From an uncultured Gammaproteobacteria bacterium (GTDB lineage Bacteria; Pseudomonadota; Gammaproteobacteria; GCA-002705445; GCA-002716945), in the NCBI GenBank assembly GCA_913041905.1, contig CAJWJQ010000003.1:1-47780 (forward strand): a stretch of DNA of 47,780 bases, read 5' to 3'. Positions within the stretch are counted from its first letter, which is position 1, and every line of letters begins with the position of its first letter. The notes under the pieces are model-generated. The model worked only from the letters and a program-made list of their open reading frames with translations. It was not told the origin of the DNA and ran no database searches. The position numbers were made by a program, and so were the translations under genes. Shown one piece after another: positions 3,993 to 10,089 of the stretch.

Positions 3993-4377
3993 AATCTATT
4001 TTCATTACACCATCCTTGCCACCTTCTATAGCTTTTTCGGTAAGCTTTTTTAGAGGTAAGCTAGGATAATTAAAGATATGCAATAACATTGATAAATTTA
4101 TCCCAGATACAACATTTACATTTTTGTCATTACAAAAATCCTTAGCAATATTGCTAGGCGTTGAACCAAACATATCTGTTAAAATTAAAACACCTTTTCC
4201 TTTGTTCAATACCTTTACATATTGTTTTGCTAAATTACTTATATCTATTGGCTTATCATAATGATCAATTGACAATAACTCTGTCCTCATTGGCACAGAA
4301 CCATAGGTGGATTTTGCAGCAAGTAATAACTGAGAACCTATGTCATTATGAGTTAAAAGTAGTAATCCTACGTTCAT
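3961..4377 (-). CDS. Stand-alone PTS EIIA, mannose family (ManX-like)
   Basis: LLTH phospho-His, GVLILTDMFGSTPSN, SGINLSML. Confidence 0.88.
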   Translation of the reverse strand: MNVGLLLLTHNDIGSQLLLAAKSTYGSVPMRTELLSIDHYDKPIDISNLAKQYVKVLNKGKGVLILTDMFGSTPSNIAKDFCNDKNVNVVSGINLSMLLHIFNYPSLPLKKLTEKAIEGGKDGVMKIDYERKKNNYKK

Positions 4378-5258
4378 TTAATATCTCTATGTTTTATTAG
4401 GATATTATTATACTTTTGCATAAGTTGTCTATATACCTTTTCAACCATATAAACTGACCTATGCTGCCCTCCCGTACAACCTATAGATATAGTCATATAG
4501 TGTCTATCATTTTTAATAAATTCTGGAATCCATTTACTTAAAAATGAGATTATACTTTTTTCCATCGTTATAGCAGATTCATCAGATTCTATAAATTTTA
4601 TAACATCCATATTTTTACCAGATAATATCCTTAATTTTTTTTGCCAAAAAGGATTTTTTAAACATCTTACATCAAATACAAAGTCACTATTATGAGGGAT
4701 ATTATTTTTATATCCAAAAGACTGCAATTGAATTAGTATATCGTTTTTATTTTTAATAAATTTAATGCTATTAACTATTTCTTTTTTTAATTCATTAGGC
4801 AATAGGTTATCAGTATCTATTATTAAACTTGAATTTTCTTTTAAGTCTTGCATAATTTCAGCTTCTTTATCTAAAGCAGATTGTAAGTCTAGTTTATTAT
4901 TTGAAAGAGGATGCAATCTTCTTGTAGCATTGAATCTTGATATAAGAGTTTTTGATGAAGAATGTAAGAATATTGTAGAATTTCTTATTTTTATTTTTTT
5001 TAGACTTTCATACAATTTTTCAATTGAGTATTTCGGATTTTTATCCATTTTTATAGATCTAATATCTATGCTGATTGCAATTTTATTATAAATACTTTCT
5101 TTTGATTTACATATTGAAGATATTAAATCAATTATCATAATAGGAGACAAATTATCAATACAGAAAAAACCTAAATCTTCTAGTGCTTTAATAGCAACAC
5201 TTTTCCCAGATCCGGATAAACCAGATAATAATACTATATTGTTATCACTTTCTTCCAC
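4374..5258 (-). CDS. rapZ: RNase adapter RapZ / P-loop protein
   Basis: SGLSGSGKS, SFGYK, DVRCL, IGCTGGQHRSV; usual position after ptsN. Confidence 0.93.
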   Translation of the reverse strand: MEESDNNIVLLSGLSGSGKSVAIKALEDLGFFCIDNLSPIMIIDLISSICKSKESIYNKIAISIDIRSIKMDKNPKYSIEKLYESLKKIKIRNSTIFLHSSSKTLISRFNATRRLHPLSNNKLDLQSALDKEAEIMQDLKENSSLIIDTDNLLPNELKKEIVNSIKFIKNKNDILIQLQSFGYKNNIPHNSDFVFDVRCLKNPFWQKKLRILSGKNMDVIKFIESDESAITMEKSIISFLSKWIPEFIKNDRHYMTISIGCTGGQHRSVYMVEKVYRQLMQKYNNILIKHRDIK

Positions 5259-5269
5259 AAATAAATCTA

Positions 5270-5719
5270 TTACTTAAAATTTTTCACAATCGATAATATA
5301 TCTTTTACATTTGCTGCTTCTCTAATTCTAAGCCTAAATGTTTTATTTTCAAGAAGCTCTGCAATTTTAGCCAATAATTTAACATGAAGATCATTTTTTT
5401 TATCTGGCACTATTAAAGAAATAATTAAATCAACTTTTTCTCCATCTATAGCTTCAAAGTTTATAGCATCTAAAAGTTTAATAATAATTACTTTTGGTTC
5501 TTTTAAATCAGGTATTCTAGCATGTGGTATTGCAATACCATTCCCAAATGCTGTAGTTCCCAGTTTTTCTCTTTCATATAATTTTTCAAAAATTAAATCT
5601 TTTTCTTTAATATTTCCATTGGACATTTCATGACTTATATTTTCTAAAACATTTTTTTTACTTTTAGATTCAAAATCTATAAAAATAGAGTTTTCATTAA
5701 TAAATTTGGTTATATCCAT
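5270..5719 (-). CDS. ptsN: PTS EIIA(Ntr)
   Basis: REKLGTTAFGNGIAIPHAR; downstream of rpoN. Confidence 0.92.
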   Translation of the reverse strand: MDITKFINENSIFIDFESKSKKNVLENISHEMSNGNIKEKDLIFEKLYEREKLGTTAFGNGIAIPHARIPDLKEPKVIIIKLLDAINFEAIDGEKVDLIISLIVPDKKNDLHVKLLAKIAELLENKTFRLRIREAANVKDILSIVKNFK

Positions 5720-5721
5720 TA

Positions 5722-7086
5722 TTATTTTTTCCTTCTATCTTTCGATGAAGGAATAGATAATGTTTCTCTGTATTTAGCAACTGTTCTTCTAGCTACTTTT
5801 ATTCCATTATTTGATAAATTATTTGCTATTTGTAAATCACTTAGCGGGTCTTTTGTATCTTCATTAGATATTATTTTCTTTAACATAGATTTAATTGTTG
5901 TTGATGAAATCATTTGCCCAAAATCAGTTTTTAATTCCGAAGAAAAGAAATATTTCATTTCAAATACTCCTCTAGGAGTTTGAACATATTTATTATTAGT
6001 GCATCTAGAAACAGTAGATTCATGGACATTTATTTCTTTAGCTATATCTTTTAAGGCTAGAGGAACCATTGCAATTTCTCCTTGACCTAAAAAATTAATT
6101 TGTTTACCAAATATTGTTTTTGCCACTTTTAAAATTGTTATATTTCTATTTTGTAATGCTTTAAGAAAAAACTTAGCATCTTGCAAATTAGTTTTAACGT
6201 ACTCTACATCTTTTTTGTTCGATATATCTTTCATTAGGTTTTGATAAATTTTATTTATTCTAATTTTTGGATTTATTTCAGGGTTAAGCTCAGTTACCCA
6301 TTTACCATTTTTTTTTGTAATGATTACGTCTGGAACTATATGCTCTTGTTGTAATGAGCCAGATCTAATGTTTCCAGGCCTAGGATTAAGTGATTTTATT
6401 AATTCTGTAACATCTCTATTTTTTTCATCTGTCCTTTCAAATATTGAAATAAACTCATGGAAGCTGGATAAAGTAGGGCTTATATCATCCTCTAATTTAT
6501 TAATTATGTTTTTAGCTTTTAGATATGAGGGATTTTTTTGATGATAGTGCTCAAGTTGAATTAACAAACAATTTTTTAAAGAAGTTGCACCTATTCCAAT
6601 TGGATCCAAATGTTGTATTTTATGTAATACAGCAAATATTTCTTGAAATGTTATTTCTAAATTTTTTCTTAATAGGAGGAATAAATCTTCTATATTTTCA
6701 GTAAAAAAACCAGCATCATTTATATAGTCTATTATATTATATGCAATAAACTGATCATTTGAATTCAATGAAGACAATCTTATTTGCCACATGAGGTAAT
6801 CTCGCAATGACTGTGGTTTACTGGATAGTTGTTCAAAAGCATCAAGTTTTTTAATATCACTCCCTTCATTATTATAAATAGAAGATAAAGTTGGCGCTTC
6901 AGATGTAATTTCTGTTAACTCGGAAGAATTTTCATTTTCAAGGAATGGGTTTGTAAGTATTTGTTCATCTATTTCTTTTTGTAGCTCTAATGAATTTAAT
7001 TGTAGTAATTTTATTGCTAGTTGGATTTGAAGGGTCATAGCTAATTTATTATTTAGAGAGAGGTTTTGTTTGAATTTAATATTCAT
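5722..7086 (-). CDS. rpoN: RNA polymerase sigma-54
   Basis: LQIQLAIKLLQL region I, HESTVSR HTH, ARRTVAKYRE RpoN box. Confidence 0.96.
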   Translation of the reverse strand: MNIKFKQNLSLNNKLAMTLQIQLAIKLLQLNSLELQKEIDEQILTNPFLENENSSELTEITSEAPTLSSIYNNEGSDIKKLDAFEQLSSKPQSLRDYLMWQIRLSSLNSNDQFIAYNIIDYINDAGFFTENIEDLFLLLRKNLEITFQEIFAVLHKIQHLDPIGIGATSLKNCLLIQLEHYHQKNPSYLKAKNIINKLEDDISPTLSSFHEFISIFERTDEKNRDVTELIKSLNPRPGNIRSGSLQQEHIVPDVIITKKNGKWVTELNPEINPKIRINKIYQNLMKDISNKKDVEYVKTNLQDAKFFLKALQNRNITILKVAKTIFGKQINFLGQGEIAMVPLALKDIAKEINVHESTVSRCTNNKYVQTPRGVFEMKYFFSSELKTDFGQMISSTTIKSMLKKIISNEDTKDPLSDLQIANNLSNNGIKVARRTVAKYRETLSIPSSKDRRKK

Positions 7087-7808
7087 AATTTAAAACTATC
7101 ACCTAGATATACATTTTGAACAAGTTTGTTTTTAATAATTGAAGATGGTTTTCCAAAAGCTATAGGTTTTCCATCACTTAAAATATATGCCTCATTACAT
7201 ACTTTAAGTGTTTCTCTTACATTATGATCAGTAATAAGTACCCCAATATCTGAACTTATTAATGTTTTTATTATTTTTTGTATTTCTATAACTGACAATG
7301 GATCAATTCCCGCAAAAGGTTCATCTAATAGTAGAAATTTTGGTTCTATTGCAAGTGCTCTAGCTATTTCAACACGTCTTCTTTCTCCGCCAGATAGGCT
7401 TGCTCCCACACTATTTAATATATTTTCAATTTGTAGTGTTTGTACTAATTCATCAAATTTTTTTACCCTAGCATTGTTGTTAGTTTGTTTTCGTGTTTCT
7501 AATATTGCCATTATATTTTCTCGAACTGTTAAGTTTCTAAAAATTGATGCTTCTTGTGGCAGATAGCTTATTCCTAGATCAGATCTCATGTGCATTGGAA
7601 TATTGGTTATTTCTTCATCATCAATCATAATTATACCGCCATTACATCTAATTAAACCAACAAGCATATAAAACGTTGTTGTTTTCCCAGCTCCATTTGG
7701 CCCTAATAAACCAAGTACTCTTTTGGTTGTTAAAGTTATGTTCACAGCATCAACAACAACTTTATCACCATATTTTTTTGATAAGTTTTGACAGATTAAT
7801 TTTGACAT
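7083..7808 (-). CDS. lptB: LPS export ABC ATPase
   Basis: GPNGAGKTT, YLPQEASIF, LSGGERRR, DEPFAG, TDHNVRE. Confidence 0.96.
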   Translation of the reverse strand: MSKLICQNLSKKYGDKVVVDAVNITLTTKRVLGLLGPNGAGKTTTFYMLVGLIRCNGGIIMIDDEEITNIPMHMRSDLGISYLPQEASIFRNLTVRENIMAILETRKQTNNNARVKKFDELVQTLQIENILNSVGASLSGGERRRVEIARALAIEPKFLLLDEPFAGIDPLSVIEIQKIIKTLISSDIGVLITDHNVRETLKVCNEAYILSDGKPIAFGKPSSIIKNKLVQNVYLGDSFKL

Positions 7809-7815
7809 TATATTT

Positions 7816-8589
7816 TTAGTTGGCTTTTTTGGTTTTAAGTATCGTTTTAACTCTTTCTTTTATATTTGATTTATCATTGGTTTCTTTCATTAATAAAACC
7901 CATGTTTTTTTTTCAAGATTATATATCATTTTTTCGCCTTGCAGATGTTCACTTCCTTTATCAGTATAAGATATTCTTTTAGCTTTTGATAAAATTTTAA
8001 TATGGCCATTTTTTAAATCAGCAATTACCCCTTCTCCCGTTGTTGTCGAATCAGGAGTAACTATTGTAGCAAATTTTTCTGTTTCTATTATTTCTTTATT
8101 TGGATATATTATTGCGGTAGATGTTTTAATTTGCGCCTCATTATTATTGTTATTATCAAACTTATCAAATACTACATTACCAGTTAGATAAATAGATTTG
8201 AAGAATGAATCTGGATCTAATGCATGCTCTGCGGTAATAGTCCAAGACTCTGTTTCTGTTGATTGTATTCTCATTTCAGGTTTCCAAACTTCAGATCTTG
8301 GGTTATTAGGAAATTTCTCTAGTCTAACTCCATTAAGAGTCCAATATAATTGCCCATTTTTATCTGTTTTTGTCATGACAAAATTATTTAAATAATGATT
8401 AGAAACAGTAGAATTCTTGTCGAAAACATTATGATCAAGTGCGCTGGATAATATATATTCAATAACAATTAACACAAAAAAAACCAACACTATTGATAAG
8501 ATATTTTTATCTATCATTGGCTTAATTTTATCTATTATGGGTTTAATTTTATCTATTATGGGCTTGATTTTGGAATTATTTTTTAACAT
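7816..8589 (-). CDS. lptC: LptC with an LptA-like C-terminal extension (putative LptC-LptA fusion)
   Basis: N-terminal TM helix; LptC-like strands (WTITAEHA, LTGNV, TTGEGVIADLKNGHIKILS); extra tail GEKMIY...RVKTIL; lies between kdsC and lptB. Confidence 0.82.
   Translation of the reverse strand: MLKNNSKIKPIIDKIKPIIDKIKPMIDKNILSIVLVFFVLIVIEYILSSALDHNVFDKNSTVSNHYLNNFVMTKTDKNGQLYWTLNGVRLEKFPNNPRSEVWKPEMRIQSTETESWTITAEHALDPDSFFKSIYLTGNVVFDKFDNNNNNEAQIKTSTAIIYPNKEIIETEKFATIVTPDSTTTGEGVIADLKNGHIKILSKAKRISYTDKGSEHLQGEKMIYNLEKKTWVLLMKETNDKSNIKERVKTILKTKKAN
8505..8571. repeat. Three 21-bp imperfect tandem repeats at the lptC 5' end, encoding (KIKPIID)n
   Basis: ttttatctatcattggcttaa / ttttatctattatgggtttaa / ttttatctattatgggcttga. 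Confidence 0.9.
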
Positions 8590-8590
8590 T

Positions 8591-9121
8591 TTATTCTTTT
8601 GCTAAAATAATTAGATCACATACATCTCTAACTGCACCATACCCACCTTTTCTTGGTGTTACCCAATGAGCATGACTAGATAAATTATTATAATTGGCAT
8701 TTGGAACAGTTATAGCTAACCCAACTTCTTTCATCAATGGTATGTCTACGATATCGTCCCCTACAAAACATACATCTTTTAGATTAAATTTTTGTGCAAA
8801 AGTATTATGGAATTCCTTAAGTTTATCTTTTGAGTTTTGAATAATTCTTTTACAGCCTAAGTCATTTCCCCTATGGTCTACAGCTTTTGAGTATCTCCCA
8901 CTAATTATAGCTATTTCAATACCAATATTTTTAAGTAACATCATACCATGGCCGTCTTGAGCATAAAATTTTTTTGACTCAATATTATCTTCGGAGATAT
9001 AAATACCTCCATCACTTAATACTCCGTCAACGTCTAAAATTAATAATTTTATATTTTTAGCTTTTTTTATAATTTCTTCGTCAATTGAATTCATATAATT
9101 TACATAATCCTTATATATCAT
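8591..9121 (-). CDS. kdsC: KDO 8-phosphate phosphatase
   Basis: LDVDGVLSDG, ISGR, VGDDIVD, GGYGAVRDVCD. Confidence 0.93.
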   Translation of the reverse strand: MIYKDYVNYMNSIDEEIIKKAKNIKLLILDVDGVLSDGGIYISEDNIESKKFYAQDGHGMMLLKNIGIEIAIISGRYSKAVDHRGNDLGCKRIIQNSKDKLKEFHNTFAQKFNLKDVCFVGDDIVDIPLMKEVGLAITVPNANYNNLSSHAHWVTPRKGGYGAVRDVCDLIILAKE

Positions 9122-10089
9122 TATTCTATACCCGCCTTAAGTATTTGATTGAGGGTTAAAAGACCAGATAATGTTTTGTTTTTATTTTTAACTATCAAGC
9201 ATGTTATTTCTCTTTCCTCCATAATATTAAGTGCTTCTGCAGCAAGAATATCAGTTGTTACAGTAATTGGATTTTTACTCATAACATTTTTAAGAATTAA
9301 ACTCCTTACGTCTCCAAATTTTTTTAGTGTTCTTCTTAAATCCCCATCAGTAAATATGCCAGTAACTTTTTTATCTTTATTGAGTGCTATTACAACTCCA
9401 TAATTATATTTACCAATCACATTGATTGCTTTAGTTAGTTTTGACATCTCATCAATAACTGGCATTTTTGTTTTAAACATTATATCAACAGATTTTTTTA
9501 ACAACCTTTTACCTATCTCTCCCTGAGGGTGAGATTTTGCAAAATCTTTCGAAGTAAATCCCCGGCATTCTAATAAAGTTATAGCGAGTGCGTCAGATAT
9601 ACCTATAGCAGTTATAACACTAGATGTAGGAGTAAGATTTAAAGGACATGCTTCAACATTCACCCCAGAATCTATCACAATGTCTGATGATTTAGATAGG
9701 GTTGATAATTTAGAGCCTGTTATTGTGATGATAGTAATCTTTAACAATTTTAACAGAGGAAGCATAAACATTAATTCTTTAGTTTCTCCTGAATTTGAAT
9801 AAAAAATTACTATATCATTTTTAGTTATTGCCCCCATATCCCCATGAAGTGCATCGGCCGCATGCATAAATATTGACGGAGTTCCGGTACTTGATAGGGT
9901 GGCAGCTGCTTTAGCAGCTATATGACCAGATTTACCCAGCCCTATTGTTACAACTTTTCCTTTGCAGAATAATATAGAGTCACATGCCTTTATAAATTCT
10001 TTATTTATTTTATCTGCAATTCTTATTAGAGACTTACCTTCAGATTTTATAACTTTTTTTGCTATTAGAATTTTATTTATTTTTTTCAT
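9121..10089 (-). CDS. kdsD: Arabinose-5-phosphate isomerase (SIS + CBS domains)
   Basis: GLGKSGHI, STGTP, HGDMG, EACPLNLTPTSS, TDGDLRR. Confidence 0.95.
   Translation of the reverse strand: MKKINKILIAKKVIKSEGKSLIRIADKINKEFIKACDSILFCKGKVVTIGLGKSGHIAAKAAATLSSTGTPSIFMHAADALHGDMGAITKNDIVIFYSNSGETKELMFMLPLLKLLKITIITITGSKLSTLSKSSDIVIDSGVNVEACPLNLTPTSSVITAIGISDALAITLLECRGFTSKDFAKSHPQGEIGKRLLKKSVDIMFKTKMPVIDEMSKLTKAINVIGKYNYGVVIALNKDKKVTGIFTDGDLRRTLKKFGDVRSLILKNVMSKNPITVTTDILAAEALNIMEEREITCLIVKNKNKTLSGLLTLNQILKAGIE

Follow-up and report, generated by a model that had tools for sequence, protein, structure and literature searches.

LptC (YrbK) of E. coli and other Proteobacteria is encoded after kdsC and combines an N-terminal anchor with a full beta-jellyroll, and in canonical loci of the class lptC and lptA often overlap or abut. 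LptA (YhbN; PF03968, TIGR03002; structures 2r19 and 2r1a) is a soluble protein with a cleavable signal peptide, forming one complete jellyroll of about 16 strands, and it is essential in E. coli. The LptA copy number in the bridge and a direct hand-over of LPS from LptC to LptD are both still debated. Deletion of lptC in E. coli together with LptF R212 suppressors gives a six-component machine, in which the bridge tolerates the loss of one jellyroll, and Lpt modules can pair with non-cognate neighbours (PMC4986956). A natural system without LptA is notable because the same authors could not obtain clones deleted for lptA (PMC4986956). Another family of the class contains a natural full-length LptC-LptA fusion, a 307-aa ORF between kdsC and lptB (locus L035).

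We analyzed a 47,780-nucleotide stretch of DNA (referred to as the window; contig CAJWJQ010000003.1 of assembly GCA_913041905.1) from uncultured marine Gammaproteobacteria, an order-level clade whose genomes measure about 1 Mb. The GC content of the window was about 30%, slightly under the range of 31-40% reported for SAR86 (PMC11582366). It encodes an LptC, here named LptC*, which resembles canonical LptC in its post-kdsC locus, N-terminal anchor and full beta-jellyroll, and differs from it by about 50 extra conserved C-terminal residues and by the lack of an lptA gene after it. The last ~36 positions of the LptA profile match this tail (a G-x-x-I-x-Y-D hairpin and an R-V-x-x-x-I strand), and the matched C-terminal region of LptA is the one that contacts LptD (PMC3944529). 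In comparison with LptA, the tail has no signal peptide, lacks a counterpart of the N-terminal ~125 LptA residues, and is joined covalently to an LptC with a membrane anchor. As in the full-length fusion, a single ORF fills the lptC-lptA slot and the bridge module is membrane-tethered. However, the full-length fusion keeps a nearly complete LptA module (PF03968 E 2.1e-23, 310-aa frame), whereas LptC* has only its last ~40 residues; the bridge would be merely tethered in the former and shortened in the latter. The E. coli six-component machine is a laboratory suppressor without LptC, while that of the clade would be a natural machine without LptA. We consider it probable that lptC and lptA fused in ancient times, that of LptA only the end docking on LptD was kept, and that a six-protein Lpt machine resulted.

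Gene order and domain architecture of lptC*

The genes around lptC* and the features within it were as follows (positions in the window, all on the minus strand).

4374..5258, minus strand, rapZ (Pfam/NCBIfam)
5270..5719, minus strand, ptsN, PTS EIIA-2 (Pfam/NCBIfam)
5722..7086, minus strand, rpoN (Pfam/NCBIfam)
7083..7808, minus strand, lptB (TIGR04406, E 5.1e-103), starting 7 nt past the lptC* stop
7816..8589, minus strand, lptC*, a 257-aa ORF with anchor, full LptC jellyroll and LptA-like tail (ORF listing, profiles)
8591..9121, minus strand, kdsC, directly upstream of lptC* (NF007019, E 1.2e-50; TIGR01670, E 1.2e-42)
9121..10089, minus strand, kdsD, with SIS and CBS domains (PF01380, PF00571)
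8505..8571, minus strand, 21-nt tandem repeat, 3.2 copies in lptC*, translated as KIKPIID repeats in the cytoplasmic part at the N-terminus (scored 106 by Tandem Repeats Finder)
8434..8505, minus strand, predicted transmembrane anchor, about residues 29-52 (AlphaFold2 helix 8-52; hydrophobic stretch ILSIVLVFFVLIVIEYILSS)
7978..8499, minus strand, LptC beta-jellyroll, residues 31-204 by profile, with strands on to about residue 209 (TIGR04409, PDB, Foldseek)
7819..7977, minus strand, conserved C-terminal tail, residues 205-257, missing from canonical LptC (identity, profile search)
7822..7950, minus strand, segment resembling the LptA C-terminus, residues 214-256, a G-x-x-M/I-x-Y-N/D hairpin followed by R-V-K-T-I-L (hhalign, LptA HMM)

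The original prediction, made from the sequence without database searches, described an order kdsD-kdsC-[257 aa ORF]-lptB with no room for lptA, and Pfam/NCBIfam verified both the ORF and its neighbors. The full order, kdsD-kdsC-lptC*-lptB-rpoN-ptsN-rapZ, lies on one strand and leaves no space for lptA, and lptC* occupies the usual lptC position between kdsC and lptA/lptB. The ORF is intact: its ATG is 1 base past the kdsC stop, and 7 nt separate its TAA from the lptB ATG at 7808.

The front part of the lptC* protein is a complete LptC. PF06835 matched residues 36-204 (103.9 bits, cut-off 21, E 9.5e-30) and TIGR04409 matched residues 31-204, corresponding to model positions 3-177 of 180 (105.4 bits, cut-off 38, E 2.5e-30). 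Both profiles stop at residue 204 and 53 residues remain, in line with the proposal that the LptC-like part ends near residues 205-210; the strings quoted for this region, ADLKNGHIKILSKAK and LQGEKMIYNLEKK...ERVKTIL, are both present in the translation. The KIKPIID repeat near the N-terminus was confined in the alignment to the closest relatives (the window, P0002, L003 and, partly, P0006).

The AlphaFold2 model of LptC*, built from a 19-sequence alignment, had a mean pLDDT of 78.1, with a long N-terminal helix (residues 8-52) and 13 strands between residues 64 and 233, and thus displays the single predicted N-terminal anchor and the periplasmic beta-jellyroll of an LptC. Tail strands at residues 212-218, 220-224 and 229-233 prolong the jellyroll sheet in the model (block pLDDT 80-89), and the conserved last segment RVKTILKT was modeled as a helix (239-252) and not as a strand, at a pLDDT of ~69. 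The best Foldseek matches were LptC structures (6mit_C, E 5.2e-8; 3my2, TMt 0.82), followed by LptA and the LptD N-domain. The PDB LptC chain 9doq_C aligns with LptC* up to its residue 186 of 193.

Sequence affinity of the C-terminal tail

The C-terminal consensus of 10 gammaproteobacterial LptA proteins was FxGxxIxYDxK...RVxxxIxP with an invariant Tyr, and the ending of E. coli LptA (IKGDKITY...KRVTTVL) agrees with it. Canonical LptC ends differently, with G-M/L-x-A...L-L-S-x-V-R-G-x-Y. The window protein has this LptC-type pattern (GVIADLKNGHIKILSKAKRISY) and then runs on through LQGEKMIYNLEKKTW...ERVKTILKT. Alignment of a 72-sequence tail profile with hhalign gave the following results.

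Tail against 29 LptA: P 2.7e-4, score 25.4, probability 42%, tail 9-52 on LptA 131-166 of 180
Tail against 13 LptA: P 0.0012, score 23.1, LptA positions 132-171 of 196
Tail against 135 canonical LptC: P 0.076, score 13.0, unrelated internal position
Tail against 13 canonical LptC: P 0.14, score 12.5, unrelated internal position
Tail against the family's own LptC body: P 0.13, score 13.3, unrelated internal position
Tail against the family's LptD N-region: P 0.54, score 11.1

The score of 25.4 was above all 200 column shuffles of the tail alignment, which averaged 10.0 (sd 1.9) and peaked at 15.5, and the reversed tail scored 12.0. A custom LptA HMM placed two domains on lptC*, with HMM positions 74-156 on the end of the body (residues ~125-205) and 128-166 on the tail (residues ~211-256). 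Based on the hhalign comparisons and this two-domain placement, the tail appears to be a second jellyroll end of the LptA type. Y223, invariant in the tail, aligned with the Tyr that is invariant in the LptA hairpin (Y151 in alignment A2).

The curated profiles did not report this likeness. With E values up to 10, PF03968 and TIGR03002 matched neither the whole ORF nor the tail alone, Pfam searches of tail pieces of 68 aa and 53 aa gave chance matches to SRP14 and Fer4_19 and no OstA family, and a PDB search with the family profile gave LptC chains and a chance phosphoglycerate mutase but no LptA. A tail HMM was too weak to decide when run against single sequences, reaching at most 7.3 bits among 29 LptA and 5.7 bits among 135 LptC, and the rank difference between the two groups (Mann-Whitney p 1.5e-8) is inflated by relatedness. 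The tail is also internal to a longer protein and covers ~36 of 180 LptA profile positions, in place of a complete jellyroll with a signal peptide; the N-terminal 70-125 positions of the LptA HMM have no counterpart past the LptC domain, which sets LptC* apart from a full-length LptC-LptA fusion. Because Pfam and NCBIfam do not call LptA, homology between the tail and LptA rests on a moderate profile-profile score. The expectation that residues 55-210 would be recognized as LptC was borne out, and the corresponding expectation of LptA/OstA for the tail held in hhalign (P 2.7e-4) and failed in Pfam/NCBIfam. Overall, the sequence comparisons provide moderate evidence that the likeness of the tail is specific to the LptA C-terminus.

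The tail might instead be a lineage-specific extension of LptC, either a duplicated hairpin or new convergent sequence, which would still replace LptA by reaching LptD. We regard this as unlikely, although several observations fit it. The end of the LptC body aligns to the same LptA columns as the tail, so jellyroll ends are alike in general, and the C-terminal part of the LptA HMM matches both. A few canonical LptC match the tail HMM through their own C-terminal hairpin, at up to 5.7 bits, and the hhalign probability of the tail for LptA was just 42%. LptC modules also duplicate in tandem in nature: a 320-aa protein (P0169) considered as a possible LptC-LptA intermediate proved to contain two LptC domains. 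However, the tail gave nothing above noise against either set of canonical LptC or its own body, so that self-duplication of the LptC end is not supported as its source, whereas its score on the LptA C-terminus was matched by none of the 200 shuffles. The alignment of the invariant LptA Tyr with Y223, and a coding site at the exact usual place of lptA, likewise speak for descent from LptA over an extension of LptC.

Conservation of the tail and the search for lptA

The same architecture was present in the relatives. In 21/21 related genome loci, from independent MAGs and single-cell genomes, the order was kdsD-kdsC-lptC(222-264 aa)-lptB-rpoN, with lptB starting at most a few bases past the end of lptC and the tail present, which answers the earlier suggestion that relatives be checked for it. 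Across 20 related loci the mean identity to the window protein was 0.56 for the tail and 0.58 for the LptC body. G218, Y223, W230, R246, T249, I250, L251 and T253 were invariant in the tail (19-sequence alignment A1), and the tail is retained, at 27-29% identity, in loci L020-L022 (222 aa), which belong to the genus that diverges most. A word-indexed search returned 110 homologues (protein clusters) of 153-264 aa, mostly from marine metagenomes, with PF06835 as the sole family. Hence, the tail is not a chance sequence.

A profile search of 1.84 billion representatives gave 1911 matches at E ≤0.001, of which the best 150 were inspected. Canonical LptC among the best 150 of 1911 were ~175-210 aa long and ended at profile positions ~184-199, and beyond position ~200 only members or fragments of the lptC* family matched. 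The tail is specific to the clade, because among these best 150 of 1911 matches only family members extend past ~200.

The genome that contains the window is 1.15 Mb in 101 contigs and 94% complete, and lptB, lptF, lptG, lptD and lptE are all present in it. Across this genome PF03968 and TIGR03002 matched only the 917-aa LptD frame, where TIGR03002 scored 19.9 bits (cut-off 71.7). We also built a custom LptA HMM from 29 sequences, of which a database search supplied 16, while the other 13 belong to canonical lptC-lptA-lptB loci in other families of the class; a search for further LptA sequences with alignment A2 yielded 20 proteins only. When all 4567 open frames of 50 aa or longer were scanned with filters off, the custom HMM ranked the lptC* ORF first (E 1.3e-5, two domains) and LptD second (E 0.003), with nothing else below E 0.1. 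HMMs of the clade's LptD jellyroll, LptC and tail found no third jellyroll protein in the genome, the next best match having E 0.048.

The 24 sister genomes (~0.7-1.1 Mb), among them a 3-contig assembly at 99% completeness and a 6-contig assembly at 100%, contained no LptA-type match (0/24): the large LptD frame alone matched in 20/24, and nothing matched in 4/24. A sample of the order, comprising 23 genomes with a completeness of 85% or more and all of one family, was likewise without an LptA-type match. In comparison, LptA was matched in 16/16 genomes that each represent a different one of 16 other families of the class; the matching frames were 155-310 aa long and the E values ran from 3.5e-9 to 6.5e-30. 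Three weak small-frame candidates were rejected. A weak second PF03968 match in one genome (G002, E 0.027), considered as the tail, sits in the LptC body at residues ~133-189; a small-frame match at a contig end beside adk lies where LptD is found in the window's genome; and a match at E 0.18 was to an unrelated 299-aa ORF. The separate lptA whose existence would have spoken against a chimera was thus found neither in the window's genome nor in its relatives by Pfam, NCBIfam or custom HMMs, and the clade is without detectable lptA.

A separate and highly divergent LptA-like carrier might nevertheless be encoded elsewhere, with the tail serving in LptC stabilization, regulation of LptB2FG or cell-wall binding. 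A very divergent LptA could escape sequence profiles, because the clade's own jellyrolls score so low: its OstA-type domains lie near the Pfam threshold, with the LptD N-domain reaching only 14.5-28.7 bits on PF03968. Most of the genomes are also MAGs, that of the window being incomplete and in many contigs, and suppressors of an lptA deletion were not obtained in E. coli (PMC4986956). However, no candidate carrier emerged from Pfam, NCBIfam, the unfiltered custom LptA HMM or the clade jellyroll HMMs, nor from the sister genomes, near-closed ones included. The canonical lptA slot is closed in all 21 loci, and the tail is conserved like the essential LptC body, and we consider such a carrier improbable, more so than an extension of LptC unrelated to LptA.

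The original prediction had also named assembly collapse at the junction as a possible refutation, and none was seen. Contigs from separate public runs cross the LptC/tail junction (X1 at 7000-9300; X2 at 7644-7929 and 7900-8091; X4, a strain variant with 18 substitutions, at 7900-8091), with no insertions or deletions listed across it in these three, which excludes assembly collapse. One contig from a metatranscriptome, X14 (8301-8560), falls within lptC* and shows no differences; DNA carry-over is possible for it, and other RNA runs contained few words. Despite the draft state of the assembly and an A9 run in the tail at ~7903-7911, an artefact in which collapse, frameshift or pseudogene decay joined lptC to an lptA remnant has a negligible chance of being correct, given the recurrence of this frame and tail across 110 protein clusters and across 21 loci of independent MAGs and single-cell genomes, the indel-free junction contigs, and a tail as conserved as the body.

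Proposed origin of the tail and its possible coupling to LptD

We infer that the tail descends from LptA, docks directly on LptD and shortens the bridge. Under an origin by fusion, adjacent or overlapping lptC and lptA genes would have been joined in frame in an ancient event, with an in-frame loss of ~390 nt that removed the signal peptide of LptA and its first strands, about 125 N-terminal residues. LptC* would take LPS from LptB2FG as usual and its groove would hand the LPS straight to the LptD jellyroll, on which the LptA-type C-terminal edge would dock by strand pairing. The resulting machine would be LptB2FG-C*-DE, with a periplasmic bridge one module shorter, which might, as the original prediction proposed, suit a narrow periplasm. 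The chimera created by in-frame deletion in the original prediction is retained here as an LptA-like end on a membrane-anchored LptC; it is not a local deletion, being an old trait of an order-level clade.

The LptD of the clade carries, in the same polypeptide, the only BamE domain of the cell. Its N-terminal model (mean pLDDT 59.6) displays a BamE-like domain, a low-confidence linker (~135-190) and then a jellyroll before the barrel, the jellyroll consisting of nine strands between residues 208 and 320, the first at about 208-216, with block pLDDT mostly 73-88. Complex prediction of LptD 180-340 with LptC* 60-257, using custom alignments, gave 0.34 (runs 0.36, 0.34 and 0.34) compared with 0.00 for the best of 3 controls, a pass that may reflect memory, as similar complexes have been solved already. 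The mark reached by the 0.34 complex was reached by 116/157 solved complexes and 2/215 mismatched pairs; at scores ≤0.60 it was reached by only 18/157 solved complexes, and by both of the passing mismatches. The runs agreed in at least 95% of contacts with partner pLDDT of at least 78, and no interface is given. The complex model gives weak support to the proposed direct contact between LptC* and LptD.

A full-text literature search, covering journals outside subscription, found no natural LptA-less Lpt system, no LptC with an LptA tail and no BamE-LptD fusion. New here are the absence of lptA from the genome and across the clade, the likeness of the tail to the C-terminus of LptA in particular, the read-level check of the junction and the BamE-LptD fusion. 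More tentatively, and at somewhat less than even chances, an entire order-level clade of abundant, streamlined marine Gammaproteobacteria may export LPS without LptA over a two-jellyroll bridge in which an LptC that has only the docking edge of LptA plugs into an LptD fused to the only BamE domain, so that outer-membrane biogenesis would be rewired into fewer coupled parts.

If the descent of the tail from LptA and its docking on LptD are correct, they would define the minimal element that couples the inner-membrane transporter to LptD. The clade would then possess a natural minimal Lpt machine with the bridge fixed at zero LptA subunits, a fixed length that would suit structural work. The finding would bear on antibiotics aimed at LptA or at the LptC-LptA interface, such as thanatin-type compounds, because a bridge of this kind lacks LptA and has no LptC-LptA interface. 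It would also show genome streamlining trimming an essential machine of the cell envelope.

Variation at the N-terminus of LptC* and gene order downstream

The cytoplasmic N-terminus of LptC*, the 257-aa ORF between kdsC and lptB, contains KIKPIID repeats, which are the product of a short tandem repeat in the DNA:

Window 8505-8571: tandem repeat with a 21-nt unit, present in 3.2 copies (89% matches)

The copy number of this repeat varies between the closest relatives, with the homologous protein P0002 and the LptC* of locus L003 both reaching 264 aa, and the repeat is absent from other genera. An alternative start of LptC* could lie at an internal ATG (M25).

The family's most divergent genus (loci L020-L022) has a different N-terminus:

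L020:3989-4657: lptC of the most divergent genus

Here LptC* measures 222 aa and retains the conserved tail, and its N-terminus (MLSKIKVRLIFFIYLLSSTTVFGNSS...) resembles a cleavable signal peptide rather than a long membrane anchor. Because of this, the protein may be soluble in the periplasm in this genus.

Elsewhere in the window, rpoN, ptsN and rapZ follow each other directly (window 5270-7086), and no hpf-like ORF was found between rpoN and ptsN in this interval, in contrast to E. coli, where hpf lies between these two genes.

Fused, tandem and extended bridge modules

A full-length natural LptC-LptA fusion was present in another gammaproteobacterial family, also between kdsC and lptB:

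L035:994-1917, (+) strand, genome G037: 307-aa ORF, LptC-LptA fusion

In this protein, the LptC anchor and body continue directly into an LptA module that lacks a signal peptide, and the module matches the LptA/OstA profile (PF03968) with an E-value of 2.1e-23 in a 310-aa frame. The representative search also returned a tandem LptC-LptC protein (P0169, 320 aa), in which the LptC profile matches two domains of a single chain (residues 11-188 and 186-313); this is a further route to multiplied bridge jellyroll modules. An extended LptA was observed in a complete 1.5-Mb genome of the same class (G028), with approximately 75 additional C-terminal residues beyond the usual LptA end:

L031:1202-1996, (-) strand, genome G028: LptA, 264 aa

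A BamE domain on the clade LptD

The LptD of the clade is encoded outside the window:

L024:1592-4327 (genome G000, contig C13), (-) strand: clade LptD, 911 aa

Residues 58-124 of this protein form an N-terminal BamE domain (PF04355, E-value 3.9e-19), placed between a signal peptide without cysteine and a low-confidence linker that leads into the jellyroll. In other families, the frame length of LptD ranges from 689 to 857 aa, compared with 911 aa here. The start of the BamE domain, PKPYKIPIxQG, is kept in all 15 aligned LptD N-termini of the family (15/15). No second BamE domain was found in the genome, where the remaining match had an E-value of 0.03 and lay in a broken 49-aa frame. A full-text literature search, with subscription journals outside its coverage, found no published description of a BamE-LptD fusion. 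These findings suggest that members of this clade have their BamE tethered to LptD.
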